Source of the DNA: Aquificales bacterium
GTDB lineage: Bacteria; Aquificota; Aquificia; Aquificales; QOAS01
DNA length: 64,000 nt
Direction of reading: 5' to 3'
Assembly (NCBI GenBank): GCA_027036735.1
Contig: JALWDU010000094.1
Coordinates: 2,326-66,325, forward strand
The position numbers and the translations under genes are program-made. The notes under the pieces were generated by a model. It worked only from the letters and a program-made list of their open reading frames with translations. It was not told the DNA's origin and searched no databases. Below, in pieces: positions 3,094 through 58,446 of this stretch (position 1 is its first letter; each line of letters starts with the position of its first letter).

Positions 3094-3161
3094 ACCTCCC
3101 CTTAAAGGACTTCTCCATCTTTTATTAACCCCTTTTTGGGGAAAACTAAACTATTTCCTTT

Positions 3162-4598: not shown

Positions 4599-4718
4599 TT
4601 TCCCCCTTCCCTTTTGGGGTTTTCAAAATTGTAATTCCCCAAAGGGGTCTTAACTTGACTTTACCCACCCGTTGTAAGATAATTCCCTCTCATCAAAATT
4701 TAAGGAGGAGGTAGAGCC

Positions 4719-4937: not shown

Positions 4938-5003
4938 TAATTCCGTCCAAATATTTCCTTCTATCCCCCTTTCGCTTCCCCCTTTGGGGGACAATGGTTC
5001 TAT

Positions 5004-5840
5004 ATGAACCCCCTCCTGGTGGACGAACTCTTAAAAAATTACCTCAACGAGGATATAGGAAGGGCTGACCTATCGGCGGAGGGAGTATTTCGCGGCGAGC
5101 GGGTCAAAGCCATTATAAAGGCTAAAGAGGACGGAATTCTCGCCGGTCTCCCCTTTGCGGTCAGGGTTTTTAAGCTCCTCGACGGGTCTTTAAGGTTTTC
5201 CTCACCTCTGAGGGAGGGAATGGAATTTAAAAAGGGCGATATCCTCCTCGAGGTGGAGGGAAATGCAAAGGCTATCCTCATGGGGGAGAGGGTTGCCCTC
5301 AATATCCTCCAAAGGCTCAGCGGAATAGCCACAAAAACCCGCAAAATGGTCGAAAAAATAAGAGACCTACCCGTGAGGTTGTTGGATACGAGGAAGACCA
5401 CACCGGGGTTTAGGCTTTTCGAAAAATACGCCGTCAAGGTGGGAGGGGGAGAAAACCACCGCTTCGCCCTCTACGACATGGTGATGATAAAGGATAACCA
5501 CATCAAGGTCGCCGGCGGGGTGGAGGAGGCGGTAAGGCGCGTAAGGGAACTAATCCCCCCCGTCTATAAAGTCGAGGTGGAGGTTTCGAATTTCGAGGAG
5601 CTTTTAAAGGTCTTACGTTTGCCGGTCGATATCGTGATGCTCGACAACTTTTCGGTGGAAGAGGCAAGGGAGGCGATAAGGATAATCCGCGAAGCGGGAA
5701 AACCCTTTGAAATCGAGATATCGGGAGGTATAAGGGAGGACAACATAAGGGAGTATGCCCTAACGGGGGTCGATTACATTTCGAGCGGTTCGGTTATACA
5801 CTCCGCCCGTTGGCTCGACCTCTCCATGAAGGTGGTTTGA
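5004..5840 (+). CDS. nadC: nicotinate-nucleotide pyrophosphorylase (quinolinate phosphoribosyltransferase)
   Basis: 278 aa. ERVALNILQRLSGIAT, LDTRKTTPG and MIKDNH motifs. Confidence 0.9.
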   Translation: MNPLLVDELLKNYLNEDIGRADLSAEGVFRGERVKAIIKAKEDGILAGLPFAVRVFKLLDGSLRFSSPLREGMEFKKGDILLEVEGNAKAILMGERVALNILQRLSGIATKTRKMVEKIRDLPVRLLDTRKTTPGFRLFEKYAVKVGGGENHRFALYDMVMIKDNHIKVAGGVEEAVRRVRELIPPVYKVEVEVSNFEELLKVLRLPVDIVMLDNFSVEEAREAIRIIREAGKPFEIEISGGIREDNIREYALTGVDYISSGSVIHSARWLDLSMKVV

Positions 5841-6007
5841 TAGAAACCCGATTTAATTCCAACCCTTTTGAGGTTTTTCCGCTTTCAACAGTTCCTTTTA
5901 ACGGAGAGTTGATTATTTGACCTTACTCCGAAGGTGGTTTTAAACCTTTAACCCGAGACCTTTGAAGGGATTGATTTCTTAATAAACCGATTGAAGGAGA
6001 AAAAAAT

Positions 6008-6430
6008 TTAAAGACCCTCAAAGAGGAATTTCCGCAAAATCTCCGCGTGGTCGAATACCAATCTATTCCAAGGGATATCTTCGAGTTTAAAGACTTTTAC
6101 CTCCTTCGCGTCGGAGGAGGCTTTCGGTTCGCCGACGGCGTGACCGACAAAGACCACCGAAACCACGTGAAAGCGCGGGTCTCTGTCGGGGTTGGAGAAG
6201 ACCCCCAATATCCTTTCCGGTTTGAAGTCGAGATTAACCTCCTCCCTTATCTCGCGTACGACGGCGCTTTCCACCGTTTCGCCCACCTCGACAAATCCGC
6301 CGGGAAGAGCCAACCCCTTCGGGGGATTTTTTCTCTCTATGAGGACTATACCCCTAAAGTTCCCATCGGGGTCGAAGAGTTTTACAATTCCGTCCACCGC
6401 GAGGAAAGGCGTCTTAGGTTGCCACCCCAT
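6008..6430 (-). CDS. NUDIX hydrolase
   Basis: Nudix box GGFVEVGETVESAVVREIREEVNL. Confidence 0.8.
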   Translation of the reverse strand: MGWQPKTPFLAVDGIVKLFDPDGNFRGIVLIERKNPPKGLALPGGFVEVGETVESAVVREIREEVNLDFKPERILGVFSNPDRDPRFHVVSVVFVGHAVGEPKASSDAKEVKVFKLEDIPWNRLVFDHAEILRKFLFEGL

Positions 6431-9631: not shown

Positions 9632-11308
9632 TTGATAATGAGTATCAACTTTTGGCATATGCAGTTGCACCCTGGCGATGAACCGGAAGCTTATCCTCCC
9701 GAGAAAATCAAGGAAATTTTGAAAAACTACGGCGTTATCGGTTTTGATATCTGGGAAGAACCCCTTAAGGAGGCAGGTTTGGATTATCTAATAGATAAAC
9801 CCTTTACGGAATGGAGTGAAAAAGAACTTAGCAAAGCTGTGGAAGCTGCTAAAAATAAAGGAACAATAAGTACTTTTAGCATTATCCATCCCTTTGTTAA
9901 TGAGATGAAACCGGGGGATATAGTTCTCGTTAGAAGGGGAAATACTCCTATAGCACTAGTAGAGGTTAAAAGTGATTACTTTATGGATAACTCTAAGGGT
10001 GAAGATGAAGAGCCGTGGTTTAGGCACCGCCGAAAGGTCAAAATTTTGGGATTTTTTGATGAGGATAAAAATAGATTAGCTTTATCTTTTAATGAATTCC
10101 CTCAAGCAAGGGGAACTCTGCAGAGGTTAACAAATTCCGAAACTCGTTCCTATAAGTTTATTAAAGAGTGGTTTAGAAAACTAATTATGGAACACTATAG
10201 ACAACAAATAAAAAAAGCTTTAGAACACCAGAAACAGGTAATATTACAGGGACCGCCTGGTAGTGGAAAAACTTTTTTGGCTAAGCAGATAAGTGAGGAA
10301 ATACTTATAAACCCTATCCCTACTAAAGTTTGGAATAGCTTTCTTAGATATATTAATGGTAAAAAGCTGAAAACAAAACAAGAAGCAGAATTTGAAGTTC
10401 AGATTACCGATAGAAATTCAATAAAAGCCGTAAACAAATCCATAACTATAACTGAGGAGAGTTTTCAAAAGTTTCTAAACAAATGTTATCAAGATATTGA
10501 AAATTGTTCTTTAGAGCCTGGGGAATCTTATCACTGGAGTGTAGCTAAGGAATTTATAAAGTGGTTTAGGGAAAATTACTTTAATAAGCTAGTAAAATTA
10601 ATCCAATTCCATCCTTCCTATACCTATGAAGACTTTGTTAGAGGAATACAAATAGACATAGAAAACGGTCATCCAAAATATAAAGCGGTAAATAAAATAT
10701 TTGCAGAGCTTTGCGAGGAAGCTTTAAAAAATCCCGAATTGAAATATATTCTCATTATCGACGAAATAAACAGAGCGAATCTTCCTGTAGTGTTGGGAGA
10801 GCTTATATATGCCCTGGAATACAGAGGTGAACCGGTTGAAACCCCTTATGAGGTTAACGGAAATAGAACCCTTATAGTTCCCGAGAATCTCTACATTATC
10901 GGGACGATGAATACCGCCGATAGGAGTATAGGACATATAGATTACGCCGTTAGGAGAAGGTTTTTCTTTATCCCCGTATGGGCTAATAAAGAGCTTATAG
11001 AAAACGACAAAGCAAGAGAGCTTTACGAGAAAACTATAGAGGAAATTTTTAAAAAGGATAACCTATCTCCGGAATTTCAGGACAAAGTGGAAGATGTAAA
11101 AATCGGTCATACCTACTTTTTGGGAGATGAAGAAAGAGTTGCCTATAAGTTTGTTTATCAAGTTATACCTCTGTTGGTCGAATATATCCAGGATGGCATC
11201 CTTAAAGGAGAAGAGGTTGTTGATGAAGTTTTTAAAAGTTTTTTTAGGGAGGGTAAAAATTGGAGAACCTTAACGGTGGAGGATGTTCTGAACAAATTAA
11301 AATCTTAG
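9632..11308 (+). CDS. mcrB: McrB-like AAA+ GTPase subunit of a McrBC-type restriction system, atypical N-terminal domain
   Basis: GPPGSGKT; FHPSYTYEDFVRG; IIDEINRAN; IIGTMNTADRS; DYAVRRRF. The ATG at 9638 may be the real start (the listed start is TTG). The segment is AT-rich. Confidence 0.8.
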   Translation: MIMSINFWHMQLHPGDEPEAYPPEKIKEILKNYGVIGFDIWEEPLKEAGLDYLIDKPFTEWSEKELSKAVEAAKNKGTISTFSIIHPFVNEMKPGDIVLVRRGNTPIALVEVKSDYFMDNSKGEDEEPWFRHRRKVKILGFFDEDKNRLALSFNEFPQARGTLQRLTNSETRSYKFIKEWFRKLIMEHYRQQIKKALEHQKQVILQGPPGSGKTFLAKQISEEILINPIPTKVWNSFLRYINGKKLKTKQEAEFEVQITDRNSIKAVNKSITITEESFQKFLNKCYQDIENCSLEPGESYHWSVAKEFIKWFRENYFNKLVKLIQFHPSYTYEDFVRGIQIDIENGHPKYKAVNKIFAELCEEALKNPELKYILIIDEINRANLPVVLGELIYALEYRGEPVETPYEVNGNRTLIVPENLYIIGTMNTADRSIGHIDYAVRRRFFFIPVWANKELIENDKARELYEKTIEEIFKKDNLSPEFQDKVEDVKIGHTYFLGDEERVAYKFVYQVIPLLVEYIQDGILKGEEVVDEVFKSFFREGKNWRTLTVEDVLNKLKS

Positions 11309-12561
11309 AGGGATTAAAGGAAAAACTGATAACCCTTAAAGAACATGAATGCATTGAAATAGATACGCAACAGTTAGATGTTTTGAGAGGTTTAGGAATA
11401 AATTTTAAAGAACCTAATTATGATGAGATAGAAAAGTTTCAATTTTTAGGTCTCTTTTTAAGGTTTGACCCTCCCAATTTTAAACTTTGCGCCCATTACT
11501 TTGTTGGTGCTTCTTGGCTAATAGAGAAGGAAATCCCCATAAGGGTTTACCCAAAGGAAAGAAATAACAAAAAACCGGATTATTTAAAAATCTTCTTAAC
11601 CCTATTGGAGGACGAGGAAATTGTTAAAAGTTCCCACTTTCAAAAGGCGTTTAAGGTTGATATAGAAAAGCCTCCTTTAAGGGTGGAGAAAGAAGACCTG
11701 TCGTTTCTTTATTTGGTGTTTTTAGCGTATTTGACACTATTAAAAGATTTGGTAAGGAAGGGGTTGAAAAAAGGGTTCCTCTGCGAGGAGCAGGTATTAA
11801 ATTCCCGTATAAAGGGCAAGTTAAACATAAAATTGACCAATCAAAGATTTTTTTATAAAGGAAAGTATACACAAACGGTGTGTAAATTTGACACGTTAAC
11901 GAAAGACATCTTGGAAAACCGTATTTTAAAAGCCGCTCTCCTACAAGTGGAAAAATTTTTAAAAAATTCCCCCTTTAAAGGAGGAAAGATCGATTCCCTT
12001 TTGGGTTATTTAAAAAATGCTTTTTTGGGAGTTTCAACAGTCAAAATTTCCGCAAAGGATTTTCTAAAGGTCAAGGAATCTCCGTTCTTTCCCGAATACA
12101 GAAATGCTCTAAGGCTTGCTCAAATAATCCTAAAAAATTTGGGAAGCGACCCTTTTGCAAGTTTTAAAGGGGGAGTGTATATAACCCCCTATGCGGTTAA
12201 TATGCCTAAGCTTTTTGAACTTTACGTTTGGAAGAAACTTAGAGAAGAATATGAACTTTCAAAGATTTTGTATCAACATTCATTTACAGGTGGGGATATT
12301 CCAGATTTTGTAATCAAAGGAGAAAACCTAATATTAGATGCGAAGTATAAGTATTTAGACCCAGGGAAGGTAAGCAAAGAAGATATAGGTCAATTGGCGA
12401 GATATGGAAGAAATATAAATATTAGACGCTCGGTGAGTGGTAACGAAGATAAGGAACCTATGCTGTGTATAGTCTATCCTACTTTCGAAGTAAGTAAAGA
12501 AAAGCCTATAGGAGATGAATATTTCAACTTTTATATGAGAGCCTTACAACTTCCCATTTAG
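11260..12561 (+). CDS. mcrC: McrC-like nuclease subunit
   Basis: Lies immediately downstream of and overlapping the mcrB-like gene. C-terminal PD-(D/E)xK-like core IPDFVI...LILDAKYKYL. The start codon is uncertain. Confidence 0.7.
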   Translation: MENLNGGGCSEQIKILEGLKEKLITLKEHECIEIDTQQLDVLRGLGINFKEPNYDEIEKFQFLGLFLRFDPPNFKLCAHYFVGASWLIEKEIPIRVYPKERNNKKPDYLKIFLTLLEDEEIVKSSHFQKAFKVDIEKPPLRVEKEDLSFLYLVFLAYLTLLKDLVRKGLKKGFLCEEQVLNSRIKGKLNIKLTNQRFFYKGKYTQTVCKFDTLTKDILENRILKAALLQVEKFLKNSPFKGGKIDSLLGYLKNAFLGVSTVKISAKDFLKVKESPFFPEYRNALRLAQIILKNLGSDPFASFKGGVYITPYAVNMPKLFELYVWKKLREEYELSKILYQHSFTGGDIPDFVIKGENLILDAKYKYLDPGKVSKEDIGQLARYGRNINIRRSVSGNEDKEPMLCIVYPTFEVSKEKPIGDEYFNFYMRALQLPI

Positions 12562-17970: not shown

Positions 17971-18342
17971 TTAAACTTTTGCAGTTTTAGGAAATTCCAC
18001 CACAATTTTTTGATAGGGGATAGAAACCTTCCATCCCTTATCCGTTTTTTCCATTTCAACAATTCCCAAGTCATGGAGAATTTGAATATCTTTCCAAACA
18101 TTGGAATAATCCCTCTTTAGGTGTTTGGCAAGTTCCCTTATAGATTTAAACTCCTTATGTTGAAGAGCCTCTATTATTTCCCATCGGGCGGGGGTTAAGG
18201 TCTTAAACATTCTTCCTACTGAAGTGAAGATTAAAACGTTTTCCACGGGAATATCTTCTCCTTTGTAAACCTTTTTTAGAACATTTAAAAGATTTTTAGA
18301 AACCCTTTGAGGTTCTTCGACCTTTATCGTTAAAATTTTCAT
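17971..18342 (-). CDS. winged-helix DNA-binding protein, putative antitoxin (TumA/HVO_A0114-like)
   Basis: 123 aa. wHTH-like SIRELAKHLKRDYSNVWKDIQILHDLGIV. 4-nt ATGA overlap with the upstream ORF. AT-rich. Confidence 0.55.
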   Translation of the reverse strand: MKILTIKVEEPQRVSKNLLNVLKKVYKGEDIPVENVLIFTSVGRMFKTLTPARWEIIEALQHKEFKSIRELAKHLKRDYSNVWKDIQILHDLGIVEMEKTDKGWKVSIPYQKIVVEFPKTAKV

Positions 18343-18725
18343 ATTTCGACCTCCCCGATAGCTTCTAAAAGTTCTAAAACCTCTTCAAAAGGTTGACCGT
18401 CTTCCTTTAATACATCTATTAATTCCTCCAAAAAGTCCTGCAATAGCCGTTTAGGGTTTTGAAAGTTATAGGGTAGTCTTTTCCCCTTTCTGTGTTTGTG
18501 TGCCCCACCGTGGGCGTTGTCGTAACGAAAATAATTCTGTTTGAGTTTTTTATCTTCTATCCAAAATGGTATATAGGCAAGGCTGTAATAATACCCGCAA
18601 GGTCTATCTTTATCCGCCTCTATACGATAGATTTTTAGAACTATTACTCCGTTTTCAATGACTATCCGTTCGTTGAATAGTTCCTCCGCTTTAGGCATAG
18701 ACTTTTTGTTTTCATACATTCCCAA
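18339..18725 (-). CDS. DUF6516/TumE-like putative toxin
   Basis: 128 aa. The motif FRYDNAHGGAHKHRKG resembles the His-rich signature I recall for the DUF6516 family. Translationally coupled to the wHTH gene. Confidence 0.5.
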   Translation of the reverse strand: MGMYENKKSMPKAEELFNERIVIENGVIVLKIYRIEADKDRPCGYYYSLAYIPFWIEDKKLKQNYFRYDNAHGGAHKHRKGKRLPYNFQNPKRLLQDFLEELIDVLKEDGQPFEEVLELLEAIGEVEI

Positions 18726-23182: not shown

Positions 23183-24430
23183 ATGCAAATAACCCGTTTC
23201 CACATAATAACTCAGAAAATCCCCACTAAATACTATCCACTCCTAAATGAGCTTCAGTTGGAAGCGGGTAAAATTTGGTCGGATAGCCTTAACCTTTTCT
23301 TTGAACTGTTTAAACAAACAGGAAAAGCCCCTAAAAAATCTCAAATCCAAAAGCTTGTTAAATCCTCCCTTTTGCATTCACAAACCACCCAAGCCATTCA
23401 GGATAGGCTCTTTGGAGCTTTAAAAAGCTACTTCAAAAACAAAAAGCAAAATCCTTCTGCTAAACCTCCAAAACCGAGAAAGTTTTATAACCTCATCTGG
23501 AAAAACCAAGCTATCCGCTATAAAAACGGAAAAATTCTTTTGCCTCTGTCAAGAAAAAGCGGAATAACTCTGTCTATACCGCTTAGAAAGAGGAAAAGGG
23601 AGTATTTAGAGGAATTGTTAAGCTCTAGGGCTAAGATAAGACAAGCGGAAATAGTTTTTAAAGGCTTTGAATACCGGTTAATTTTGCTGGTTAAGGAAAC
23701 GGTTGAGATAAGCCCTCCCGATAGAAATAAGGTTGTAGCTCTGGATTTGGGAGAAATTCACCCATTTGTAAGCTTTGACGGGGAAGAAGTTTTAATTTGG
23801 AACGGAAGATTATTAAGGAGTTATAAACAGCTAAGGTTAAAGCTTATAGCCTTGAAACAAAAGCTATTGGCAAGAAAACAAAAAGGAAGCAGAAGGTGGA
23901 AAAAGATTAAAAGAAGCTTAGACAGACAAATAGTGAAGGTAGGGAGGAAAATAGAGGACTTAGAACACAAGCTAACGAGAGCATTTGTTAAATACTGCAA
24001 AGCCAAAGGGATAGGAACGGTGGTAATAGGGAAGTTAAAAGGAATAAGGGAAAGGGCAAAATACGGCAAGAACGCCAATCAAAAAATCCACTTAATGTGG
24101 AGGTTTAATAAGCTATTGCAAAAGTTGGGATATAAATTAGAGAACGAGGGCATAGTGGTGGTGAAAGAAGATGAGAGCTACACCACCCAACTATGTCCTA
24201 AATGTGGAAATAGACATAAGCCCAAAAACAGAAACTATGTCTGTCCTGCATGTGGCTTTAGCTACCATAGGGACGGGGTAGGTGCGATAAATCTATTTAG
24301 GAGGTTTATGGAAAAAGTATCGGGGAGCTTTAATCTCCCCGTAGATGGACTGACACGCCCTCGGGGTGTGAAATACTCCCCGAGTAGCTCAGGGTGGGTT
24401 CTACCTACCCTGAGAAACCCCCTGCTTTAG
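23183..24430 (+). mobile_element. tnpB: IS200/IS605-family TnpB (OrfB) RNA-guided nuclease gene, no tnpA
   Basis: 415 aa. RuvC-like VVALDLGEIHP (D), VVKEDESYTTQ (E), YHRDGVGAINL (D). Zn finger CPKCG...CPACG. Confidence 0.85.
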
Positions 24431-33228: not shown

Positions 33229-33901
33229 GTTCCAAACCCTTATGGAGATATGAATTGAAGTTTCATATCCTCCTTGAGGTTTTTTGTTTCCCGTTTTAAT
33301 CCTTTATGGGGATATAAAAATACTTAGCATCTAAAACCGAAAAACAGGTGCGTTTTAAGCCCCTATAGGGGCATAACAACTTTTGGAGGCAAATTTCTCT
33401 ATATCGTCAATATCGAGTTTCAATCCCTTCTAGGGACATAACAACAATCTTGGAAGATGATGGATTTACCCCCAACTATGTTGTTTCAATCCCTTATAGG
33501 AACATAACAACGTTCGTTGATATTGAAAATTCACCGCTGGGACGAAGTTTCAATCCCTTATAGGAACATAACAACAAAATCGTATTCTTAGAAGGACTCT
33601 GCTTTAGGGAGGGTTTCAATCCCTTCTAGGGACATAAAAACAAACTTCACCTACCACCCGCGGGACTGCTGTTGCTGTGTTTCAATCCCTTCTAGGGACA
33701 TAACAACCAAGGTTAAATTTAAAGAAAATGATTTAGAAAATTGTTTCAATCCCTTCTAGGGACATAACAACGAAATCAGGAAAAAGAAAATAATGTATCG
33801 AAAACAGAGTTTCAATCCCTTCTAGGGACATAAAAACTTCGAGGTTCGCCATATCCTTGGAATTATGGCTGTGTTTCAATCCCTTCTAGGGACATAAAAA
33901 C
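33229..33901 (-). CDS. placeholder
   Basis: placeholder. Confidence 0.
33229..33901 (-). CRISPR. CRISPR array: 8 conserved plus 3 decayed 29-nt repeats, 35-37-nt spacers, no adjacent cas genes
   Basis: Plus-strand repeat gtttcaatcccttctagggacataacaac at 33417, 33483, 33547, 33613, 33679, 33743, 33809 and 33873. Decayed copies at 33352 (5 mismatches), 33293 and 33229. The minus-strand reading ends GGGATTGAAAC and the decay is at the left end, so the leader is probably on the right (33902 onward). Confidence 0.93.
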
Positions 33902-34194
33902 CAAGATGAGGCCAATCTTATTAAGTTGCCAAGGAACCCAACCCTTACTTGGGTTTAAAGAATACCAAACCCACCTAAAGGAGTCAAGCAAAAATTGACT
34001 TTCTAAGTCAACCCTATATTGACATTAATTTCCTGGAGTGTACCCTTTCGTTGGAACTCTAAGACAAAACTCAATTCTGCAAAAAGTTTTTGTCAAATTT
34101 CAATCCTTAACTTGTCATTAAATCTTGAGTCTGACCTTATAAAGGTCAAAGTTATAAAATTTCTCCTCTCGCAATATCCCCGGGAGGGTTTTAA
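33902..34194. promoter_or_regulatory. AT-rich CRISPR leader / divergent nrdA promoter region with GTCAA/TTGAC palindromes
   Basis: GTCAA-N7-TTGAC at 33983-33999 and 34007-34023. Perfect TGACCTT-ata-AAGGTCA at 34132-34148, 47 nt upstream of the nrdA ATG. Confidence 0.4.
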
Positions 34195-47991: not shown

Positions 47992-50900
47992 TTAGAGGTT
48001 TTCCCCTCCCTCGAGGATTTCCACCAATTTACCCAATTTGGTCTTTAGCAGGTTTAGGTTGTTGGCGTTGGGCAAAACCCAATACTCCTTTCCGAGTTCT
48101 ATTTCGTATAAGTCCCCTTCCCCCGTAAGGAGTTTTATATAGGTTGGGGTACCCTCGTAGGGGTCGGAAAGTTTTTTCAAAAACTTTCGGAGTTTTTCTA
48201 AAGTTTCGTCCCTAACGTGGGTTTCCTTGAGTTTTATAACCACTTTTAGTGTTTTTTCTACATCTTCGGGCGTTAACACCCTCCGGACGATGAGTTTTTT
48301 GCGCTCCGTTTCGAAATCGGTGGTGAGGTCTCCCTCAATCACCACAACTTTATCCTCTCCGAGTTTGTCTTTAACAACTTCATAAACATCGGGGAAAACT
48401 ACGCACTCGACAATACCGGTTTTGTCGATTAGGTTGAATACGGCCATATATTTCCCCGCGCGGGTTCTCTTCTCCTCAAAGTCGACCACCACGCCGGGGA
48501 TTTTCAAATCGTTCGCACTTTCAACCTCTTCGAGGTCTTCAATTCTCGTTCTATACCTCTCCAAGAGGTGGGGATATTTGTCGAGAGGGTGACCGCTGAT
48601 GTAGAAACCCAAAAGTTCCCTCTCCCTCCTCAAGCGTTCGAGAAAATCCTCCACACTTTCGGTGTTTACGTTTCCATTTTTTCCTTTTGGGGTTCCGAAA
48701 AGGGAATTCTGTCCCACCGCGAGGGAGGGTTTACCCTCCGCCTGAACCTTTTTGAGGAGTTCCTCCCTACTCTCACCGGTAAAGTCAAACGCCCCCGCTT
48801 GAATGAGGGCTTCGATAACCTTTTTATTCACCTTACGCTTGTCAACCTTCCTAACGAAGTCGGCAAGGGATTTGAAACTTCCGAATTTCTTCTTAGCCTC
48901 TTGGATAGCTTTAGCCGCCTCCTCCCCGACACCCTTAATCTTCGCCAGACCATACCTTATATAGGTCTTTCCGTTTTTCTCCTCCAACGAAAAGTGGATG
49001 TCGGATTTGTTAATATCCGGCGGTAGGAGTTCGAAACCGAAGAGCTTTGCATCCTTTATAAGGGATATGAATTTGTTTTCGTTCTTTTCCGTCGAGAGTT
49101 TTACCGCAAAAAAGACACCCGTGTAGTGGGTTTTGAAAAATGCGGTCCAATAGGAGATATAGGCGTAGGCTGTCGAGTGGGATTTATTGAAGGAATAGGA
49201 TGCGAATTTCTCTATGCTAGCCCAAAGCTCCTCTATCTTTTTGCGGTCGAAGCCCCTCTTAACCGCCCCCTCGATGAACTTTTCGCGCATTTTTTGGATA
49301 AGGTCGGAGTTGTGGACTATCACACAATTGGCTATAAAGTTGGAATTTTCCACCGTAAGGTCATAAGTTTCTTCCACTCCAATAGGTTCTATGTTCTCTA
49401 TGTAATCCCAAAATATGTCGCCGTTACAGAGGTTTAAAAGTTCCTCATCCTCGAGGACAGCGGCGAATTTTTGTAACCTGTTGGGCGTAATATTTAGGGA
49501 GGTATTTATTCCACCATATTCACCGACCTTTGCCGAGAGCTTAGCCAAAGTCAATTCCTTTTCCTCCGCTTTTCGCTGAATTTTTAACCATACCTCTTTT
49601 GGTAGTGTTTCTTTTTTGAAATTGGTTGTTTTTTGTTTCAACTTATCGATTAACCCCTTAAGTTTTTTCTTCTTTCTTCCCACGACATGGTTTTGAATTA
49701 GCTTCAAAAACTTAAGTAGGTTTTCCCTACCCCTAACCTCAACGCGGTAATAAGTTCTTTTTTGACCTTTATAGGTTACTTTTTTCTCCTTTACCGCCGC
49801 GTTAATGCCGAATCTCCTTAGTAAAAGCAAAATTTGCAAAGCCAAGCGGTGCGATTTGGTAAGAAACTCGGAATACTCGTAGTTTTTGGTTATTACAAAG
49901 CTTCCATCGGTAGTCCACAAAGCGCCCAAAAAGGCAGAAATAACTTCCTTTGGAGCGGACATTATTTGATTGGGAATAAATTTATCCTCCGCTTTTTGGT
50001 TGTAGAGTCCCAACGAACGCAAAAAGTTTTTAATATCCCTTCTTTGGGAGGTTTTATTTTTTTGATAGATGTAAACCGCTTTAACATTTCGCGGATTAGT
50101 GTAAACCTTTATCTCGCTTTGGGGAAATTCTCGGCTTACCAACTCTATAAAGTCCTTAATCACTTCTTCGTCGGAGGAATAGAACATAACACTTTTTAGG
50201 TTTCCGTCCCCCAAAAGGTATCCAACTATTTTTGCCCTTTCGGGGGAAGTTGTTGAATGTTCCTTCACATTTATAGTTAAAGGCGTGGCTATCCTTTCCC
50301 CTTTTATGAGTTTCTTTAAAGGTTTCCATCCGTTTACGGTTAAAAATAGGTGAGAAGCCGTTGCCTTAATAGTTCCCGAATAGCGGAGTTTCACCCGATA
50401 GACCAAATCCTTCCCATTTCTGTGGACCTCTACAATTTTTGAGGGCTCGCTGTGGAAGTTTTTATTTACGGAAGCAACCTTTAGAGGAGAGTTTATTAAG
50501 TTAACCGTAAAGGTTTTCTTACAATCTTTGCAGTATACGGAAACTTTATTGTTTCTTTTTCCATTAATGTATGTATTTTCGGAATTGCAATAGCGGCATT
50601 TTACTTTGCCCCTGTTTCTATATTCGTAGTTCTCTATTAACGTTAAAAGTTCGACTGTGGAACCGTCGGCAAGGGTTACCAACGTATCGGCGGTTAAGCA
50701 ACGCTTCTTTCCTATTCCTTTCCTCAGGGTATCCGCCTCACCCGGCGTGAAACCGGATAGCACTTGGGACATCTTCATTATCTGCTCTTGATAGATACAG
50801 TTATGGCAGACGATATTGTTTCCTATAAAGTTGTGGTACTTTTCGATTTCAAGGTCGTAAACGTGCTCTTTTCCTACAAAAGTAATTCCTTTTACCGGGA

Positions 50901-53900
50901 TAAAGGAAACTTTTCCCCTTTCGGGAACAGCCACCAAATCTTTACCCACTTGGAGGTCTTTCAATTCCTTCCAACCTTCGGGGGTCAAAAATTTGTGGTC
51001 TTTTGTAGCCTTTATTTTTGCACCGTTGGAAAGAACGAGTTCGTAAACCTCTTTAACCCCGTTGTCGAAAACTTTGGAAATTTTACCCTTTACGGGTTTA
51101 TTCGTCTCCGTATCCACCGAAAGGACTTCCAAACCCGTTAACTTCCTCTCGACGATTTCCCTCAATTTCAAACTCCTACCGTCGTAGAGGGTTATTTCCG
51201 TATCCCCCGTAAGACAGAGTCCGTAAGTCTCCTTCAAGATAGGTTCGAGTTGGGGAAATTCGTATTCGATGGGCTCCTCGCCGTGCTTTCTCCTTACAAA
51301 GCTATCGACTAGACCCGATTTGAGGGGTCCCGGGCGGTAAAGCGCCAAAACCGCGATTAGGTCGTCGAAGCGGTCGGGTTTTAACCTAACGAGGAGCTGC
51401 TGCATACCCCTACTTTCGAGCTGGAATACCCCCGTAGTCCTTCCGCTCTTTAAGAGGTCGTAAACCTTCGGGTCTTCGTAGTTAAGGGAGAGTAAATCTA
51501 TATCTTCCCCGTAGAGGTCTTTAACCATCTTCTTCATGTGGTCTAACTCTGTGAGGGTCTTAAGTCCGAGAAAGTCCATCTTGAGGAGTCCTATCTCTTC
51601 AAGGACTCCCATGTCGTATTGGGTTGCAACGATAAACTTCTCCTGTTTTGTTTCCTTATCCTTTTCCTTCCTCGCGTATAGGGGAACGAGCTCTATAAGG
51701 GGTTTGGGGGCTATAACCACACCCGCCGCGTGGAAACCGGTATGTCTGGTAAGCCCGTCGAGTTTTTTCGCTATATCGACAGCCCTTTTTAGGGAGGGGT
51801 CGGAATTTACCATTTGACGGAACTTAATAACGGCGTCCTCTATGTCCGGTCTCTCCCCATATTTTTCCTTCAGTTGGTCTATACTCCAATCGGTCATCTC
51901 CTCCAGGGAGAGTTGGGAACCTTGGGTTTCCCCTTGGGGGATAAGTTTGGCGAGCCTATCCGCCTTCTCGAGGGGAATGCCGAGCGCACGGCAGACGTCC
52001 CTGATAACCGATTTGGACTTCAGGACATTGTAGGTAATAATCTGGCTGACGTTGTCCCTTCCGTATTTGCGCCTAACGTAATCTATAACGTCGTCCCTCC
52101 TATCCTGACAGAAATCGACGTCTATGTCGGGCATAGACACCCTTTCGGGGTTTAGAAAACGCTCAAAGAGCAGGTCGTGCTTTATAGGGTCTATATCGGT
52201 AATCCCGAGGGCGTAGGCGACCAGCGAACCGCCGGCGGAGTTGTGTATCGCCACCGTCGAGGTGGTATAGGAGTGGTCGAATGGAACGGTAATGTCGTAA
52301 ACCTCACCCTTATAGGGGACTTTTTCAACACCCCTAACCTTCACGTAGATAAACCTTTCATCGACAAAGAAGGAATCGTTTCGGAAAAACTTTTGACTGG
52401 GCAACTTAATGGGAAATTCTTCAAAGGTTTCGTTCCACCTGAGGAGCTGTTTTCCCGAAAGTTTAACCTTGTATTCGGTATTCCAATTTTCCCTTTTCCT
52501 TTCCCCCTTTATTACGCTCGCCCAAAAGCCGAAGCGTGCCAAAAGCAGGCGAAGCTGATAAGCCAAAGTCTGTGAAGTAGTGGAGTAGATAATAGACGCC
52601 GTTTTGGAGCTTCTGCCGTCGTAGCCGTCCCCCCTAAAGAGGTAGGCGATTAGCGTTTTCACATATTCGTCCTCCCCGTGAAGAACGACCTCGGTCGGTA
52701 TCCTCTTGTTTTTAGCCCTATCCCCGCAAAGGTTTCTCAAAAATTGGGCTACTATTTTGGTCTTAAATTCAACCTTTAAAGCCCTTCTGGTGGAGGACTT
52801 AAAAATTTTTCCCTCTACGTTGAAAACCTCTTTAAACAATCTCAAGAGTTCTTCGGCGTATTTCCGCTCCCACTCGGCGAAACCGAAACCTACAACCCCA
52901 CCGTGTTCGTCAATCTTTGTATAACCCTCGGAGATGAAATAACCGAGAATTTTCGCCAATTTGTGGTCTAACTTTACAAATCTCGGAACCTTTGCGGTTT
53001 GGAGTCTATTGCTTCCCCTCTCGTAGTATAGGGAATTCTTGTCCCACCTTAGGGCTTTACCCTTTTCCACATACCTTAGGAGGTCGAAAACCACACCCTT
53101 TTGGGTCGATTTTTGCCTCGGGAAGACCAAAAAGTCGTCCTTTTTCAACTCCTCTGCGGGTATCCACCTTAACTTGTACTTCTCGTAAGGTTTATCTTTG
53201 CAATACCTATTGCAGGTAGGTTTACAAACCGTTTCCTTTACGGATTTAACCTTGCACTTTTCCGTTTGCAGTGCTAAAACTTTGTGGTCTCCCGTAAGGG
53301 TTAGTTTTTCCCCTCCGATTTCGACCTCTACGAGTTCCTCATTAACTTCATACCTATAGGTGTTTAAAACGGGTAAAACGGCACCCCTGTGGGTTAAAAC
53401 GAAATCCCCGACCGAAACCTCCTTTATGGGTTTGATTTCACCGCTTCCGAGCATTACCGGTGTATCGGGCAAAACGCAACCCCTTCCGGGACCCACCGGG
53501 ATATCGTTCTTTTTAGCCCAGTTGATAAAGTCCTGAACTATGAGGAAATAGCCGGGGAAACCCATTTGGGAGATAACGTCGAGTTCGTATTCCAAACGTT
53601 TCCAATAGGTTTCGTTGTCCTTAGCCTGTCCCCTCTCTATGCGTTTTTTTAGACCCTCCTTTGCCAGTTTACGGAAGTAACTTTCGAGGTCTTCCCCTTC
53701 GGGGACTTCGTAAACCGGCATTTTGTATTCTTTGTTTTCGAAATACTCCAATCGGTCGGATACCTTTTCGGCCACCTCAAGGGTGTTTAAGAGAGCCTTT
53801 TCCCAACCCTCAAAGCGGTTTTCGAATTTCCTCCAAACCTCTTCGGGTGATGCGAAGTGTAGTTCCAACTGCTGGAGTTTTTGCCCGTGAGGGGTTTGGA

Positions 53901-54624
53901 TTAACTCCTGATAGGTGGTTTTCATCTGGAGGGCGGTCAGTATCATATGGGCGACCTTGTCCTCGGGCTTGAGGTAGTGAACGTCGCAGGTGGCTATTAG
54001 CTTAAGGTCGTGCTTTTTGGCGAGTTCTACAAGGATGCGGTTTGCAGTTATCTGCTCCTCTATATCGTGGGGTTGAAGTTCCACATATAGGTCATCTTTT
54101 CCAAATATCTCGACCAACTTTAGGAGCCACTTTTCAGCCTCTCTCTCCTCACCTCGGGAGGCGTAATATGTGGGTAACCCTTTGAGGCAAGCCGTTAAAC
54201 ATATAAGACCCTCTCGGTGTTCGTTTAAAACCTCCAAATCTATCCTCGGTTTGTAGTGAAAGCCCTCCAAAAAGCCTATTGAGGAGAGTTTCATAAGGTT
54301 TTTCAGCCCAACGTCGTTTTTCGCTATAAGCACTATGTGGTGGTTTTGTGTGTCGGTGTAGTTGTCCTCCTTGCCCTTACCCCTCTTGTCGAAGCGGGAA
54401 CCCTTTGTTATGTAAGCCTCCATTCCGATAATCGGCTTTAGACCCTTGTCCTTCAGGGCGTGGTAAAACTTGTAAGACCCGAACAGGTTCCCGTGGTCGG
54501 TCATCGCGACCGCCTTGTAGCCTAGCCTTTCCGCATACTCGGGAAGTTCCTTTATCTTTATAGCCCCGTCGAGGAGCGAAAACTGTGTGTGCAGGTGGAG
54601 GTGAACGAATTCCCTTTTACCCAT
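47992..54624 (-). CDS. dnaE: DNA polymerase III alpha subunit interrupted by three inteins
   Basis: 2210 aa. PHP domain (FVHLHLHTQFSLLDG), GPGRG|SAGGSLVAYALGIT, FNKSHSTAYA, OB fold. After removing 413+139+464 aa the extein is 1194 aa. Confidence 0.95.
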   Translation of the reverse strand: MGKREFVHLHLHTQFSLLDGAIKIKELPEYAERLGYKAVAMTDHGNLFGSYKFYHALKDKGLKPIIGMEAYITKGSRFDKRGKGKEDNYTDTQNHHIVLIAKNDVGLKNLMKLSSIGFLEGFHYKPRIDLEVLNEHREGLICLTACLKGLPTYYASRGEEREAEKWLLKLVEIFGKDDLYVELQPHDIEEQITANRILVELAKKHDLKLIATCDVHYLKPEDKVAHMILTALQMKTTYQELIQTPHGQKLQQLELHFASPEEVWRKFENRFEGWEKALLNTLEVAEKVSDRLEYFENKEYKMPVYEVPEGEDLESYFRKLAKEGLKKRIERGQAKDNETYWKRLEYELDVISQMGFPGYFLIVQDFINWAKKNDIPVGPGRGCVLPDTPVMLGSGEIKPIKEVSVGDFVLTHRGAVLPVLNTYRYEVNEELVEVEIGGEKLTLTGDHKVLALQTEKCKVKSVKETVCKPTCNRYCKDKPYEKYKLRWIPAEELKKDDFLVFPRQKSTQKGVVFDLLRYVEKGKALRWDKNSLYYERGSNRLQTAKVPRFVKLDHKLAKILGYFISEGYTKIDEHGGVVGFGFAEWERKYAEELLRLFKEVFNVEGKIFKSSTRRALKVEFKTKIVAQFLRNLCGDRAKNKRIPTEVVLHGEDEYVKTLIAYLFRGDGYDGRSSKTASIIYSTTSQTLAYQLRLLLARFGFWASVIKGERKRENWNTEYKVKLSGKQLLRWNETFEEFPIKLPSQKFFRNDSFFVDERFIYVKVRGVEKVPYKGEVYDITVPFDHSYTTSTVAIHNSAGGSLVAYALGITDIDPIKHDLLFERFLNPERVSMPDIDVDFCQDRRDDVIDYVRRKYGRDNVSQIITYNVLKSKSVIRDVCRALGIPLEKADRLAKLIPQGETQGSQLSLEEMTDWSIDQLKEKYGERPDIEDAVIKFRQMVNSDPSLKRAVDIAKKLDGLTRHTGFHAAGVVIAPKPLIELVPLYARKEKDKETKQEKFIVATQYDMGVLEEIGLLKMDFLGLKTLTELDHMKKMVKDLYGEDIDLLSLNYEDPKVYDLLKSGRTTGVFQLESRGMQQLLVRLKPDRFDDLIAVLALYRPGPLKSGLVDSFVRRKHGEEPIEYEFPQLEPILKETYGLCLTGDTEITLYDGRSLKLREIVERKLTGLEVLSVDTETNKPVKGKISKVFDNGVKEVYELVLSNGAKIKATKDHKFLTPEGWKELKDLQVGKDLVAVPERGKVSFIPVKGITFVGKEHVYDLEIEKYHNFIGNNIVCHNCIYQEQIMKMSQVLSGFTPGEADTLRKGIGKKRCLTADTLVTLADGSTVELLTLIENYEYRNRGKVKCRYCNSENTYINGKRNNKVSVYCKDCKKTFTVNLINSPLKVASVNKNFHSEPSKIVEVHRNGKDLVYRVKLRYSGTIKATASHLFLTVNGWKPLKKLIKGERIATPLTINVKEHSTTSPERAKIVGYLLGDGNLKSVMFYSSDEEVIKDFIELVSREFPQSEIKVYTNPRNVKAVYIYQKNKTSQRRDIKNFLRSLGLYNQKAEDKFIPNQIMSAPKEVISAFLGALWTTDGSFVITKNYEYSEFLTKSHRLALQILLLLRRFGINAAVKEKKVTYKGQKRTYYRVEVRGRENLLKFLKLIQNHVVGRKKKKLKGLIDKLKQKTTNFKKETLPKEVWLKIQRKAEEKELTLAKLSAKVGEYGGINTSLNITPNRLQKFAAVLEDEELLNLCNGDIFWDYIENIEPIGVEETYDLTVENSNFIANCVIVHNSDLIQKMREKFIEGAVKRGFDRKKIEELWASIEKFASYSFNKSHSTAYAYISYWTAFFKTHYTGVFFAVKLSTEKNENKFISLIKDAKLFGFELLPPDINKSDIHFSLEEKNGKTYIRYGLAKIKGVGEEAAKAIQEAKKKFGSFKSLADFVRKVDKRKVNKKVIEALIQAGAFDFTGESREELLKKVQAEGKPSLAVGQNSLFGTPKGKNGNVNTESVEDFLERLRRERELLGFYISGHPLDKYPHLLERYRTRIEDLEEVESANDLKIPGVVVDFEEKRTRAGKYMAVFNLIDKTGIVECVVFPDVYEVVKDKLGEDKVVVIEGDLTTDFETERKKLIVRRVLTPEDVEKTLKVVIKLKETHVRDETLEKLRKFLKKLSDPYEGTPTYIKLLTGEGDLYEIELGKEYWVLPNANNLNLLKTKLGKLVEILEGGENL
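49309..50700 (-). mobile_element. DnaE intein 3 (aa 1309-1772, LAGLIDADG endonuclease plus CxxC..CxxC insert)
   Basis: CLTADTLVTL..., block B TASHLF, IVGYLLGDGNL and LGALWTTDGSF, ends VIVHN|S. Splits GIGKKR|SDLIQK. Confidence 0.9.
50800..51216 (-). mobile_element. DnaE intein 2 (aa 1137-1275, mini-intein)
   Basis: CLTGDTEITL..., block B TKDHKF, ends IVCHN|C. Splits ETYGL|CIYQEQ. 139 aa with no endonuclease domain. Confidence 0.9.
52240..53478 (-). mobile_element. DnaE intein 1 (aa 383-795, LAGLIDADG endonuclease-containing)
   Basis: CVLPDTPVML..., block B TGDHKV, LAGLIDADG-like ILGYFISEGY and LIAYLFRGDGY, ends VAIHN|S. Splits GPGRG|SAGGS. Boundary codons verified on DNA. Confidence 0.9.
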
Positions 54625-55407: not shown

Positions 55408-55999
55408 GAATGCTCCTATCGGAGTTTTTACCGAGCAATAACAACGCCCGTTTGGAGCAATTTAGACTTTTTTTCTAATACGTTAGAAGTGTCAGAATTT
55501 AAAGTCCCTTATCGTTTGTTATTGATGTTGCTATTGGTGCCATCTTTTATCTGCGGTTTAAAACTGTCCAAAGCCGGAATACCTGTAACTTTTACGGTAA
55601 CGAGTGGTAAATATTGATAACAATCACAATAAATGTTTCTTTATAAACTAAAGAAGTAAAACAAATTTATATTACCACTAAAAGTGATATCTCTCCTAAA
55701 GAGACTATGTGTATTTGTTTAAATTGAAACCACGATATGAAAAACTTCCGAAGGATGGGCGGATAAAAGGACTCGCTTATTTCCTATATTTATCATCAAT
55801 CTACCGTACAAGTTTTATCCAAATTATCTTAAAAGGGAAATTTCTTTAAACCACTCAACTTTGAAGCTAAAAAGGGGGGATACTCTTATAGCCTTTCAAA
55901 TTTATCCAAGACCTAAAGAGGGACAAATTTTTCCATTGAGGAATTAAAAGAGATCTTAAATAAGGAAAAGTATACTTTTTGAAAAGTAGAGGTTTTAAG

Positions 56000-57748
56000 T
56001 TAATTATTGAATTTAAAATCATTCAAGATAAATTCCTTAATCTTTTCTTTAAATTTATCGTTATACTTCAAATATAAAGTTCCATTTTTAAGAAAAAATT
56101 TTGTTATACAATCTTCAGTCCCCAAGTGAGCTAAGAAATTTCTTTTCTCTTTCTCAAGATAACTTTCTATATTTATATTGTTAATTTGACAATTCTTGTT
56201 TTTAGATATAGCTAGCTCTTGGGGCTCAGAAGATGCTATATTTTTTAACTCATTAATTCTTTTATCCTTCCATTCCCTATCTATAAAGACTTCATTTAAA
56301 TCTAAATTATACTTTCTAAACAGTTCCTTAAAATTTTTCTTTACTTTTTCTATAGGTAAAGCCTCTTCCGAAAACTCTAAATATCTAACACTTTCATTAT
56401 AAAATCCTTTAAAGGAAGCCCAGAAGTTTTGGGTCAAGTTTACTCCCAACATAATTAGATAAGTTAAGTTTCTAAAATATAAGGCATTAAGTTCTTTAGG
56501 ATTTATATTAATTTCTATTATCTTATCATTAACTTTTATGGAAGTTTTGGAAAATATTTGTCTTCTGATGTTGAAAAGTTTACCCAATCCTTGTATTATT
56601 TCATCGGGCTTTAAAAGTTTCTTTTGAAGAACCAAACCTAAAATAATACCTTTTTCTAAACTATTAAACAATAGTATACTTTGATTAACAACTTCTTCAA
56701 AATCCAAACCCGATAAACCCTTAAAATTTAAAGTTCTGGAGAATTTTTTAAAATCCTCACTTTTCATTTTTTCCTTCGTTAAAGGCTTAGAGAAAAATGC
56801 TATTCTTTTTATTTCCTCTACGGAAAAATGTTTTATATCCTCTTTTTGGGGAATTCCCATTACCGGTTCCGCGGATATAAGATAAAATTCTCCTTTATTT
56901 TCTTTTTTTCCGAGAAAGAAAAAATTCCAAAAGACTACAGAGTTATAAAAACTTTCCAAAAGTTCAACTACAGAGGCATTTAAACCGGTTGAAACATCAA
57001 GGTAGCATTGGAAGTTTAGATTTTTATTACCTATTTGGTTTAATTTTTTAATAAAATCGGAAATGAATAAAATATAGAAATATAGAGTTCTATCCTGAAA
57101 TTGTCCGTTAAATTTTAAAATCTTACCCCTTTTCTTATAAAAACCTATAGACGGTATAATTTCATAGTCTATGCTATCCTGTAACAACTTCTTCCACTTT
57201 AAATCTTCTTCCCCCAAAATTTTGAATACTTTAGACTTATTTAAAAATGGTGTTAATTCTTCTTTGCAAAAATCTTGTAAATCCTCCTTTTCGGCAATTA
57301 ATTTATTAAAGATTTCGTCTAGTCCCTGCCACTCTAAATCTTCTTTGAAAAAAGAAACAAAAGCTTTAATTTCATCATAAATTTTTTGGCTTTCTTTTAC
57401 ACTTATGCCTGGTTTTTCAAATCTTTCTAATAGACTTTTTAATTTCTTAGTATAAAAATTTTCGAAATCTTCTTTAAATTTATTTATCAAACTCTTAAAT
57501 TCCGTATCGTTATTTTTACTTTCAGCTTCTATTTCATCAATTTCGAAAATGCTTAAAGGAATTAAAATATTTAACTTAACATTTTGATGTTTATATTCCT
57601 TTAAATACCTGAAGAGTGCCAAAGAGGGTGTTGGGGCTACTATCTTTTTAGTATCGTTGTTTTCACCATTAAATTCCCAAGTAACCAACTTATAGGCTTT
57701 ACTAAAAAAATTTCCTGCAAGGGAATATATCACATTTTCAATAGGCAT
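56000..57748 (-). CDS. csx1: stand-alone Csx1-like CARF/HEPN CRISPR ancillary protein (582 aa)
   Basis: N-terminus VIYSLAGN..YKLVTWEF...APTPSLALFRYL...VKLNILIP fits the CARF/Csx1 pattern. DxTHG-like LDVSTGLN. C-terminal HEPN R-x4-H KRNFLAHLG. Very AT-rich. Confidence 0.6.
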   Translation of the reverse strand: MPIENVIYSLAGNFFSKAYKLVTWEFNGENNDTKKIVAPTPSLALFRYLKEYKHQNVKLNILIPLSIFEIDEIEAESKNNDTEFKSLINKFKEDFENFYTKKLKSLLERFEKPGISVKESQKIYDEIKAFVSFFKEDLEWQGLDEIFNKLIAEKEDLQDFCKEELTPFLNKSKVFKILGEEDLKWKKLLQDSIDYEIIPSIGFYKKRGKILKFNGQFQDRTLYFYILFISDFIKKLNQIGNKNLNFQCYLDVSTGLNASVVELLESFYNSVVFWNFFFLGKKENKGEFYLISAEPVMGIPQKEDIKHFSVEEIKRIAFFSKPLTKEKMKSEDFKKFSRTLNFKGLSGLDFEEVVNQSILLFNSLEKGIILGLVLQKKLLKPDEIIQGLGKLFNIRRQIFSKTSIKVNDKIIEININPKELNALYFRNLTYLIMLGVNLTQNFWASFKGFYNESVRYLEFSEEALPIEKVKKNFKELFRKYNLDLNEVFIDREWKDKRINELKNIASSEPQELAISKNKNCQINNINIESYLEKEKRNFLAHLGTEDCITKFFLKNGTLYLKYNDKFKEKIKEFILNDFKFNN

Positions 57749-57955
57749 TTAAGTATCAATTTTAGAAAACTTTAAAACTTTCCCAAGTTTCGTAAATATA
57801 ATTCTCAACCCACAACCCATTCAAGTTTTTCAACGATATAAATTTGAACTCTATCCTTTTTGGGATTCACAATCCCTTTTATTCTCTATATAAGCCTTTC
57901 CAATTCATATCTCCCTATGAGAGAGACATGGAAAATACTTAACTGATATCTATAG

Positions 57956-57997
57956 CCGCCATTCATCCTTTAGCCAAAGCAAAGGACTTTCTGGCGG
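57956..57997. repeat. imperfect palindrome, reverse-complement copy of the TnpB left-end palindrome (copy 2)
   Basis: ccgcca-ttcatcctttagccaaagcaaaggactttc-tggcgg. The outer stems are identical to 23092-23137, and the 30-nt interior matches the reverse complement of copy 1 at 26/30 positions. Confidence 0.7.
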
Positions 57998-58140
57998 AGG
58001 TTTTGTAAAAAGACTCCCCTTTCATAAGCGCAAGGTAAAATACATAATGTCTTCATAGAAAACGTTCGCTGGAAACCCTCTATCTGTGATAGGGGGAGGA
58101 AAGCGACCAAAGGAGAAAAATGCTTGTAAACTCCAAAAGT

Positions 58141-58400
58141 TTGTTTATAATAAACAAGGTAGGTTGGTTCTTTGGAAACACAAGGGGGAATAGGTGAGTT
58201 TCCTATTCCCCAACCCGCAAGGTTAAAAACAAAAATAAAAATAACAATGTTTAAAAACCTTGTGGGTTAGCCTAAAACAAGAATAAGCCCCTTGTGAGGG
58301 GATTGGGCTAACAACCCGCCTTGGTGGTGGCTATCTCCTTTTGGAGTAGCCACTGCCTAAAGTCAAGCCCCGCTGCTCATAGCGGGGTGGTTGAATTTTT
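58141..58400 (+). ncRNA. candidate structured RNA or cis-regulatory leader of unknown class, ending in a hairpin plus T-tract
   Basis: Stems: 58141-47/58151-57; 58185-94/58202-11 (10 bp); 58213-24/58256-67 (12 bp, A-rich 31-nt loop); 58266-72/58306-12; 58288-92/58297-301; 58327-38/58343-53; 58368-74/58381-87 followed by ...gaattttt. Confidence 0.35.
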
Positions 58401-58446
58401 AAGAAACATATGGAATTTTGGATTATCAACATTAAATTCCCTACAT

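Follow-up and report, generated by a model that had tools for sequence, protein, structure and literature searches.

Introduction

Csx1 and Csm6, ancillary ribonucleases of type III CRISPR systems, are homodimers with CARF and HEPN domains, in which the HEPN domain cleaves single-stranded RNA (ssRNA) on binding of cyclic oligoadenylate (cOA); the architecture of Csx1 is given as CARF-HTH-HEPN, where HTH stands for helix-turn-helix (PMC9704534). It has been reported that cyclic tetra-adenylate (cA4) is the activator of Csx1 proteins generally, including T. onnurineus Csm6 (ToCsm6) and S. islandicus Csx1 (SisCsx1) (PMC9704534, PMC8284326), and that two R-x4-6-H motifs converge upon cA4 binding (PMC11317161). 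Other proteins that deal with cA4 are the ring nucleases of the DUF1874 (Crn2/AcrIII-1) family and the cA4-activated protease CalpL (PMC12409355), and orphan type III accessory genes have already been documented (PMC13148439). Here we describe a csx1-like gene in a 64-kb stretch of DNA from an Aquificales bacterium (assembly GCA_027036735.1, contig JALWDU010000094.1; the whole stretch of 64,000 nucleotides is referred to as the window). It encodes a divergent Csx1-family protein of a long form. With a probability of roughly 0.7, we regard it as an orphaned, probably still selected and presumably cA4-activated type III accessory RNase that has been left over from a decayed cassette.

Results

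Assignment to the Csx1 family

The csx1-like open reading frame (ORF) encodes 582 amino acids (aa) from an ATG start and has a GC content of 27%, whereas that of the surrounding DNA is about 50%. At this composition a stop is expected at about one codon in 10, and the chance of 582 open codons is approximately 3e-26. A preliminary description, made from the sequence alone, had proposed a Csx1-like CARF/HEPN protein from a set of short peptides, and every one of them was found at its expected position: VIYSLAGN (residues 6-13), YKLVTWEF (19-26), APTPSLALFRYL (38-49) and VKLNILIPLS (57-66) at the N-terminus, LDVSTGLN (250-257) in the middle and KRNFLAHLG (535-543) near the C-terminus.

Single-sequence profile searches placed the protein close to, and below, curated family limits. 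Pfam PF09455 (Csx1_HEPN) matched residues 497-563 with 21.9 bits (E 2.3e-4), narrowly under the 23-bit gathering threshold, and NCBIfam TIGR01897 (cas_MJ1666, "CRISPR-associated CARF protein Csx1") matched residues 152-569 with 41.4 bits against a curated cut-off of 110. Because its score lies far under 110 bits, the protein is classed as a relative of TIGR01897 and not as an equivalog. Members of the same subfamily that adjoin Cmr operons score likewise low on this model (43-48 bits), and the shortfall is a property of the subfamily. Two PADLOC models, for which there is no curated cut-off, matched more strongly: CARF9--CARF_HEPN (E 2e-21, residues 146-398) and Csx1/Csm6 (E 5.9e-17, residues 6-573). 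TIGR01897 and CARF9--CARF_HEPN were the best-matching curated models, and the N-terminal ~150 residues, including the large insert described below, fall outside both.

Relatives of the protein are rare. A word-indexed search of 5.8 billion proteins returned only six clusters (34-100% identity), and HMMER, run exhaustively over 1.84 billion representatives, gave 170 matches, 12 of them with E<1e-30. These 12 were full-length forms of 524-637 aa together with fragments; the other matches grade into ordinary proteins of ~440-480 aa that align only from about residue 150-190 of the query onwards. The long forms make up a rare subfamily of Csx1, marked by a large sensor-domain insert and a DxSxGxN motif, that counts about a dozen clusters at 50% identity in 1.8 billion representatives. 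In an alignment of 40 sequences, residues G255, N257, P295, R536, H541 and G543 were invariant and D251, S253, N537, F538 and A540 were conserved in at least 90%; 38 of the 40 relatives scored above the Pfam threshold for Csx1_HEPN, and 22 above that for Csx1_CARF.

The family profile and the predicted structure gave a consistent picture. The profile matched P. furiosus Csx1 (PfuCsx1; 4EOG) with E 1.8e-17, Sso1389 (2I71) with 9.5e-13 and ToCsm6 with 3e-7. An AlphaFold2 (AF2) model built from the 40-sequence alignment reached a mean predicted local distance difference test score (pLDDT) of 93.9 and a predicted template modeling score (pTM) of 0.92. When this model was compared with the Protein Data Bank (PDB) by Foldseek, all 11 matches at E<=1e-3 were Csx1 or Csm6 proteins (PfuCsx1, ToCsm6 with and without cA4, Sso1389 and SisCsx1), the best being PfuCsx1 and ToCsm6, each with E ~1e-12. 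Profiles, model and structural matches all place the gene in the Csx1/Csm6 family, in agreement with the preliminary description, and the search for CARF and HEPN similarity by profiles and structure prediction that it had called for detected both. The gene is nameless in public sources and could be annotated as a divergent Csx1-family CARF-HEPN RNase.

Domain organization and the sensor-domain insert

The predicted protein has a Rossmann-like CARF fold with motif I after strand 1 and motif II, of the form [DN]x[ST]xxx[RKN], after strand 4; its C-terminal HEPN domain carries an R-x4-6-H motif (Table 1). G12 of motif I is invariant in an alignment of relatives. PfuCsx1 and Sso1389 align with the middle helical domain through their own middle regions. 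The preliminary description had read the HEPN motif in its R-x4-H form, which was borne out: R536 and H541 are the same in all 40 relatives, and the family profile (RNFlAHsGFE) aligns with RNFIAHSGFE of PfuCsx1.

The unusual length of the protein had been ascribed to helical segments rich in K, E and N between the domains. The extra length and its helical nature were confirmed; its location was not, as the model shows a single insert of ~125 residues inside the CARF domain, with helices spanning residues 70-189 at pLDDT >90. K, E and N together make up 37% of this insert versus 30% of the remaining protein. Between the end of strand 4 and the IIPSIG strand, long-form members have 112-127 residues and short relatives 12-55; therefore, the additional length represents one expanded sensor-domain insert and not an interdomain linker. 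The insert is a trait of the subfamily; at a guess, it might cover the ligand pocket as a lid or provide a surface for oligomerisation.

The protein does not contain the literal D-x-T-H-G signature and reads D-V-S-T-G at the homologous position. Motif II of the family profile (yLDiStGlN) aligns with YLDLTHGIN of 4EOG, FIDTTHGIN of 2I71 and FDSTHGLN of 6O6S, so that LDVSTGLN does occupy the DxTHG position of solved Csx1/Csm6 proteins (DxTHGxN), as had been proposed. The variant is no peculiarity of this gene, however. The His of DxTHG is present in none of 40 clade members, the third position holds Thr instead of Ser in only two, and DxSxGxN is the norm across the 40 relatives, including members beside Cmr operons. 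Being clade-wide and found in Cmr-adjacent members, the motif is therefore no mark of a special function.

Comparison with characterized Csx1 and Csm6 proteins

In common with PfuCsx1 and Sso1389, the protein has the order CARF, middle helical domain, HEPN, a GN loop after strand 1, D-x-[TS]-x-G-x-N after the fourth core strand, RNF[IL]AH as its R-x4-H motif, and an association with type III-B systems, which here is that of the subfamily. Foldseek E-values were 1e-12 for PfuCsx1 and 6e-10 for Sso1389, although the structural alignments show only 12-14% identity and TM-scores of only 0.4-0.6. The protein differs from both in being ~100 residues longer through the expanded CARF insert, in carrying S-T in place of the TH of DxTHG, and in having no type III operon near this copy. 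ToCsm6 (6O6S; cA4 complex 6O6Z) resembles it in overall fold (Foldseek E 1e-12, target-normalised TM-score 0.6) and in motif II, where FDSTHGLN aligns to LDVSTGLN. In contrast, ToCsm6 has 440 aa and lacks the long insert, and its H132, the DxTHG His mutated in 6O6T, corresponds to T254.

A more distant parallel is the Marinitoga Csx1-Crn2 fusion (8Y7G; PMC7293037, PMC11317161), which Foldseek matched with E 2e-3. There, as in the subfamily studied here, a Csx1 RNase is coupled to DUF1874/Crn2, in the subfamily by conserved gene adjacency; in the subfamily the B116/Crn2-type domain is fused to a convergent SAVED-Lon protein rather than to Csx1, and in the window this neighbour is a pseudogene.

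Remnants of a decayed cassette around csx1

The csx1-like gene lies in an AT-rich core at approximately 55.53-57.96 kb (GC 22-32% against a background of about 50%). The closest relative with genomic context is a metagenomic protein (P0002) that is 75% identical and is encoded on a 6.4-kb contig (L003). The gene order on this contig is cas2, a 256-aa gene, cas2, csx1, a convergent 581-aa gene and a 292-aa gene, and the end of the 581-aa gene overlaps that of csx1. Positions 1754-3941 of the contig aligned by blastn to 57958-55777 of the window with 77% identity, and the AT-rich core coincides with this homologous segment. The contigs of relatives are likewise low in GC (25-33%).

Both flanks of csx1 in the window retain broken remnants of this arrangement (Table 1). 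On one side, tblastn with the Cas2 protein of the L003 contig recovered two pieces: residues 26-75, in frame -3 at 72% identity and interrupted by a stop, and residues 72-87, in frame -1 at 87.5%. On the other, the surviving pieces of the 581-aa protein correspond to its residues 316-336, 374-390, 393-412 and 506-581, whereas residues 1-315 and 413-505 are absent. Taken together, these alignments demonstrate that csx1 is the survivor of a cassette made up of cas2, csx1 and a convergent SAVED-Lon-B116 gene, the other parts of which are truncated or frameshifted here, and that the AT-rich island is a piece of a cas accessory cassette that was acquired horizontally and has since decayed. The claim that csx1 is the only intact gene of the island was thus upheld. 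Its description as a stand-alone gene holds to the extent that no effector is in reach, but the solitary state is secondary, the neighbours having decayed to pseudogenes. No flanking terminal repeats, tRNA or Rfam element that would mark a mobile island were found around the gene, and no degenerate CRISPR repeats were found beside it at up to 9 mismatches.

The lost neighbour can be characterized from its relatives. The 581-aa protein (positions 3715-5460 of the L003 contig, minus strand) matched the PADLOC models SAVED_LON (3.9e-37) and CRISPR-Lon (1.9e-29), and its C-terminus comprises a STIV_B116/DUF1874 domain (Pfam 4.2e-23), with a match to a Csx16 model as well. The same convergent Lon-B116 neighbour is carried by two further relatives (L005 and L006), with 87% identity over the C-terminus. 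As judged from its domains, a protein combining SAVED-Lon with DUF1874 would be a self-limiting fusion of protease and ring nuclease; we found no description of such a SAVED-Lon-DUF1874 fusion in the literature searched. The likeness to CalpL (10.1101/2021.12.06.471393, PMC11417357) concerns this decayed neighbour only, by way of the SAVED_LON and CRISPR-Lon matches, and the protein differs from CalpL in its additional C-terminal B116/Csx16-like domain; the window has only fragments of this protein. No homologue of CalpT or CalpS was recognised; the adjacent 292-aa protein (5460-6338 of the same contig), which has no family match, could be a substrate of the SAVED-Lon fusion.

We also observed that the two cas2 genes of this contig lie around the 256-aa gene, itself without a family match, at positions 648-1943, and that no cas1 is present on its 6.4 kb. 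In the window, a non-coding stretch of ~490 bp (57958-58446) separates the cas2 remnant from a DUF2202 gene; it contains several GC-rich hairpins, for example at 58185-58211 and 58367-58388, and has no Rfam match.

Genomic context of the long-form subfamily

No cas10, csm or cmr gene was detected in the window, either with PADLOC profiles on its 55 ORFs or by tblastn with Cmr1-6, Cas10 and Cas6 of a relative's Cmr operon (L011), which substantiates the earlier statement that type III effector genes are missing from these 64 kb. A type III operon immediately outside would have made csx1 an ordinary accessory gene of a resident system; none was present in the 3.7 kb past the right end of the window (seen in L001).

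Relatives tell more about the original setting. In one member (P0011; L011/L012), csx1 comes directly after SAVED, Cas6 and a complete Cmr operon (Cmr1, Cas10/Cmr2 and Cmr3-6), separated from them by a single unannotated 321-aa gene, and type I-B genes follow. At three other loci (L007, whose protein P0005 is 52% identical, L009 and L027), a truncated gene adjoining csx1 matches the C-terminus of Cmr6, and in two (L008 and L010) csx1 adjoins cas6. One member (P0012) is accompanied by cas6 alone on a contig of 18 kb, and another (P0014; L025/L026) is solitary among housekeeping genes in two assemblies. Because its neighbours include a Cmr operon, cmr6 ends, cas6, and cas2 with SAVED-Lon, the subfamily is a type III-B accessory family, members of which are sometimes detached.

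The solitary member lies at 10001-11680 of its contig (L025), between IF-2B-family/BioW genes and aminotransferase genes, with a GC content of 0.38, slightly lower than the 0.41 of its flanks; no cas genes were found in 10 kb upstream or 6.5 kb downstream. Profile scans with the subfamily alignment over genome contigs and metagenome contigs yielded no locus. No relatives were found in viral contigs, in BFVD, or in phage or plasmid records, which leaves the earlier suggestion of a mobile signalling nuclease without support.

Selection on csx1 and decay of its flanks

To ask whether csx1 is decaying with its neighbours, we compared it with four relatives and obtained ratios of nonsynonymous to synonymous substitution rates (dN/dS) of 0.11-0.17. 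The ORF of 1749 nt has no net frame-breaking lesion, and its gaps relative to the L003 contig are compensated within a few codons. The retained flanks, 663 nt in all, have accumulated at least 8 small disabling lesions in addition to large deletions. These patterns suggest that csx1 is probably still under purifying selection.

Discussion

By analogy with characterized Csx1 and Csm6 proteins, a homodimer would bind cA4 in a pocket formed by its two CARF domains, using G12-N13 of motif I and D251-x-S253-x-G255-x-N257 of motif II. Binding would join the two R536-x4-H541 motifs of the HEPN domains into a composite site for non-specific ssRNA cleavage. We consider cA4 the likely ligand, since it is the published activator of Csx1 and the conserved neighbour joins two cA4-specific modules (PMC12409355). 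The gene arrived in a low-GC cassette together with cas2 and the convergent SAVED-Lon-Crn2/B116 gene, of which all but csx1 then decayed; if csx1 is functional, cA4 must come in trans from a Cas10 complex whose genes lie beyond the 64-kb window. Among the three options raised in the preliminary description (a distant type III system, an independent or mobile nuclease, and another source of nucleotide messenger), service to a distant type III system fits best.

Several observations weigh against this interpretation. The protein misses the curated cut-offs of both single-sequence models (41 versus 110 bits for TIGR01897, 21.9 versus 23 for PF09455). The flanks are as close to the L003 contig (78-80% nucleotide identity) as csx1 itself (80%), and being no more diverged than csx1 they indicate that the decay is recent; therefore, the intact state of csx1 could in part reflect how little time has passed. 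In addition, the deletion on the upstream side probably removed the promoter of the original operon, and promoter-like matches upstream of csx1 are weak and not enriched over shuffles. Finally, there is no cas10, csm or cmr within the window or in the 3.7 kb beyond its right end, and any source of the activator is therefore putative.

Might the resemblance to Csx1 be fortuitous, arising from an AT-rich, low-complexity ORF that is no true CARF/HEPN protein? Besides the missed Pfam and NCBIfam cut-offs, such a reading can draw on a phmmer search against PDB sequences that gave no match at all, and on a poor AF2 model from a 6-sequence alignment that was unusable past residue 200. Against it stand profile- and structure-level matches that are strong and mutually consistent, motifs that are invariant across 40 homologues, and relatives that sit in a cas context; the family profile against PDB proteins, the AF2 model from the full alignment and the Foldseek matches refute it, and we assign it practically no probability. 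A weightier alternative is that the whole cassette is dying and that csx1 is a non-functional relic merely not yet hit by inactivating mutations. Both retained neighbours are pseudogenes and other parts of the cassette are deleted, there are no type III genes within ~68 kb, the substitution divergence of the flanks does not exceed that of csx1, as expected of recent decay, and the upstream operon context has gone together with its promoter. However, the lesion density of the flanks (at least 8 in 663 nt) predicts ~20 lesions in the 1749 nt of csx1 and none is seen, the gaps within csx1 are all frame-compensated, and the catalytic and ligand-binding motifs are all intact. The dN/dS of ~0.11 points the same way, though it is averaged over the whole divergence. 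We therefore regard a relic as unlikely.

It is also conceivable that the protein is retained for work independent of Cas10, either sensing a nucleotide signal of other origin (a further cyclase, an invader) or acting as a constitutive or otherwise regulated RNase. The solitary placement recurs in P0014, in two assemblies and with no cas gene 10 kb up or 6.5 kb down, and P0012 has only cas6 beside it on its contig; furthermore, the sensor domain has a large subfamily-specific insert and the DxTHG His is replaced clade-wide. Yet Cmr operons directly adjoin members that share both the motifs and the insert, the conserved neighbour is a cA4-signalling module, and other cyclase families were not detected among the ORFs of the window. 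As orphan accessory genes are known (PMC13148439) and cOA is diffusible, action in trans is the simpler account, and we hold Cas10-independent action to be highly improbable. A broader speculation, for which we see little likelihood, is that the long-form subfamily has repeatedly been kept solitary, here and at the P0014 locus, for a role without a resident Cas10, in which it would sense cA4 or another nucleotide from a different cyclase or an invader, and in which the insert, together with a motif II lacking its His, might shift the specificity for the ligand. If the host proved to be without Cas10, selective retention of the gene would raise the question of a Cas10-independent use of CARF effectors.

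As an orphaned accessory RNase, the gene represents nothing new in kind of system: among type III accessory genes it is an ordinary one, since orphaned, rather than a new stand-alone system. It does provide a clean example of how a type III accessory gene becomes orphaned as a horizontally acquired cassette decays around one intact gene.

Other features of the window

An orphan CRISPR array, reported earlier at a distance of 22 kb from csx1, was located together with its leader (Table 1). Among loci L013-L024, the leader is 81-87% identical to those of at least 10 arrays in the Aquificales metagenome-assembled genome (MAG) JALVTI01, where arrays adjoin type I-B cas3b, cas1b and cas6b. In this MAG, then, arrays of this family are associated with type I-B, and nothing links the array to csx1. 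Two contigs of very low coverage assigned to Methanocaldococcaceae (L018 and L022) carry the repeat and leader of the window array too, probably through mis-binning.

Table 1. Positions of the csx1-like gene, its predicted domains and motifs, the flanking remnants and the CRISPR array within the 64-kb window.
Feature	Residues	Position in window	Strand	Basis or description
Intact csx1-like gene		56000..57748	-	ORF, PADLOC, AF2 model, Foldseek, dN/dS
CARF N-terminal strands	1-66	57551..57748	-	Model strands 3-10, 22-27, 33-38, 56-64
Motif I, G12-N13	12-13	57710-57715	-	Aligns with WGN of PfuCsx1 and IGN of Sso1389
Helical insert in CARF, seven helices, K/E-rich	~67-192	57173..57550	-	AF2 model
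CARF C-terminal part	~193-320	56789..57172	-	Model; CARF remainder 193-313
Motif II, D251-V-S-T-G-L-N257	251-257	56978-56998	-	Directly after strand 245-251
Middle helical domain (approximate bounds)	~321-446	56411..56788	-	AF2 secondary structure; model ~325-445
HEPN domain	~447-582	56003..56410	-	Pfam Csx1_HEPN 497-563; model ~447-575
R536-NFLA-H541 (R-x4-H)	536-541	56126-56143	-	Aligned to RNFIAHSGFE of PfuCsx1
cas2 pseudogene remnant		57765..57957	-	Codons 1-25 lost, one in-frame stop, +7 nt frame-breaking insertion at ~57806
SAVED-Lon/B116 (Crn2-type) pseudogene fragments		55531..56000	+	Three frames, stops, -1 and +1 indels
CRISPR array, ~10 repeats		33293-33901	-	Copies of GTTTCAATCCCTTCTAGGGACATAACAAC; reverse complement ends in ATTGAAAC
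Conserved ~250-bp leader of the array		33902-34150	-	No cas genes adjacent to array or leader

Two further candidates for cA4-related genes were rejected. An ORF at 23183..24430 (plus strand) matched the PADLOC model PDLC01039, "Csx1 found elsewhere" (9e-32), and is not a second Csx1: it encodes TnpB/IS605 OrfB and lies in a pocket of 37% GC, and the label of the model is misleading. A putative Csa3/CasR cA4 sensor at 17971..18725 (minus strand) was dismissed because Pfam identifies a TumE toxin and an HVO_A0114-type winged helix-turn-helix (wHTH) protein there, and the sensor matches came from the wHTH only; these two genes overlap by 4 nt, as in a toxin-antitoxin-like pair.

Elsewhere in the window, positions 9632-12561 (plus strand) encode an McrB-like AAA_5 ATPase and McrC, that is, an McrBC restriction system, in a pocket of 35% GC. 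A DnaE-like ORF of 2210 aa at 47992-54624 (minus strand) has three apparent intein insertions, read from the translation by their Cys start and HN end, which coincide with an AT-richer stretch at 49-51 kb.

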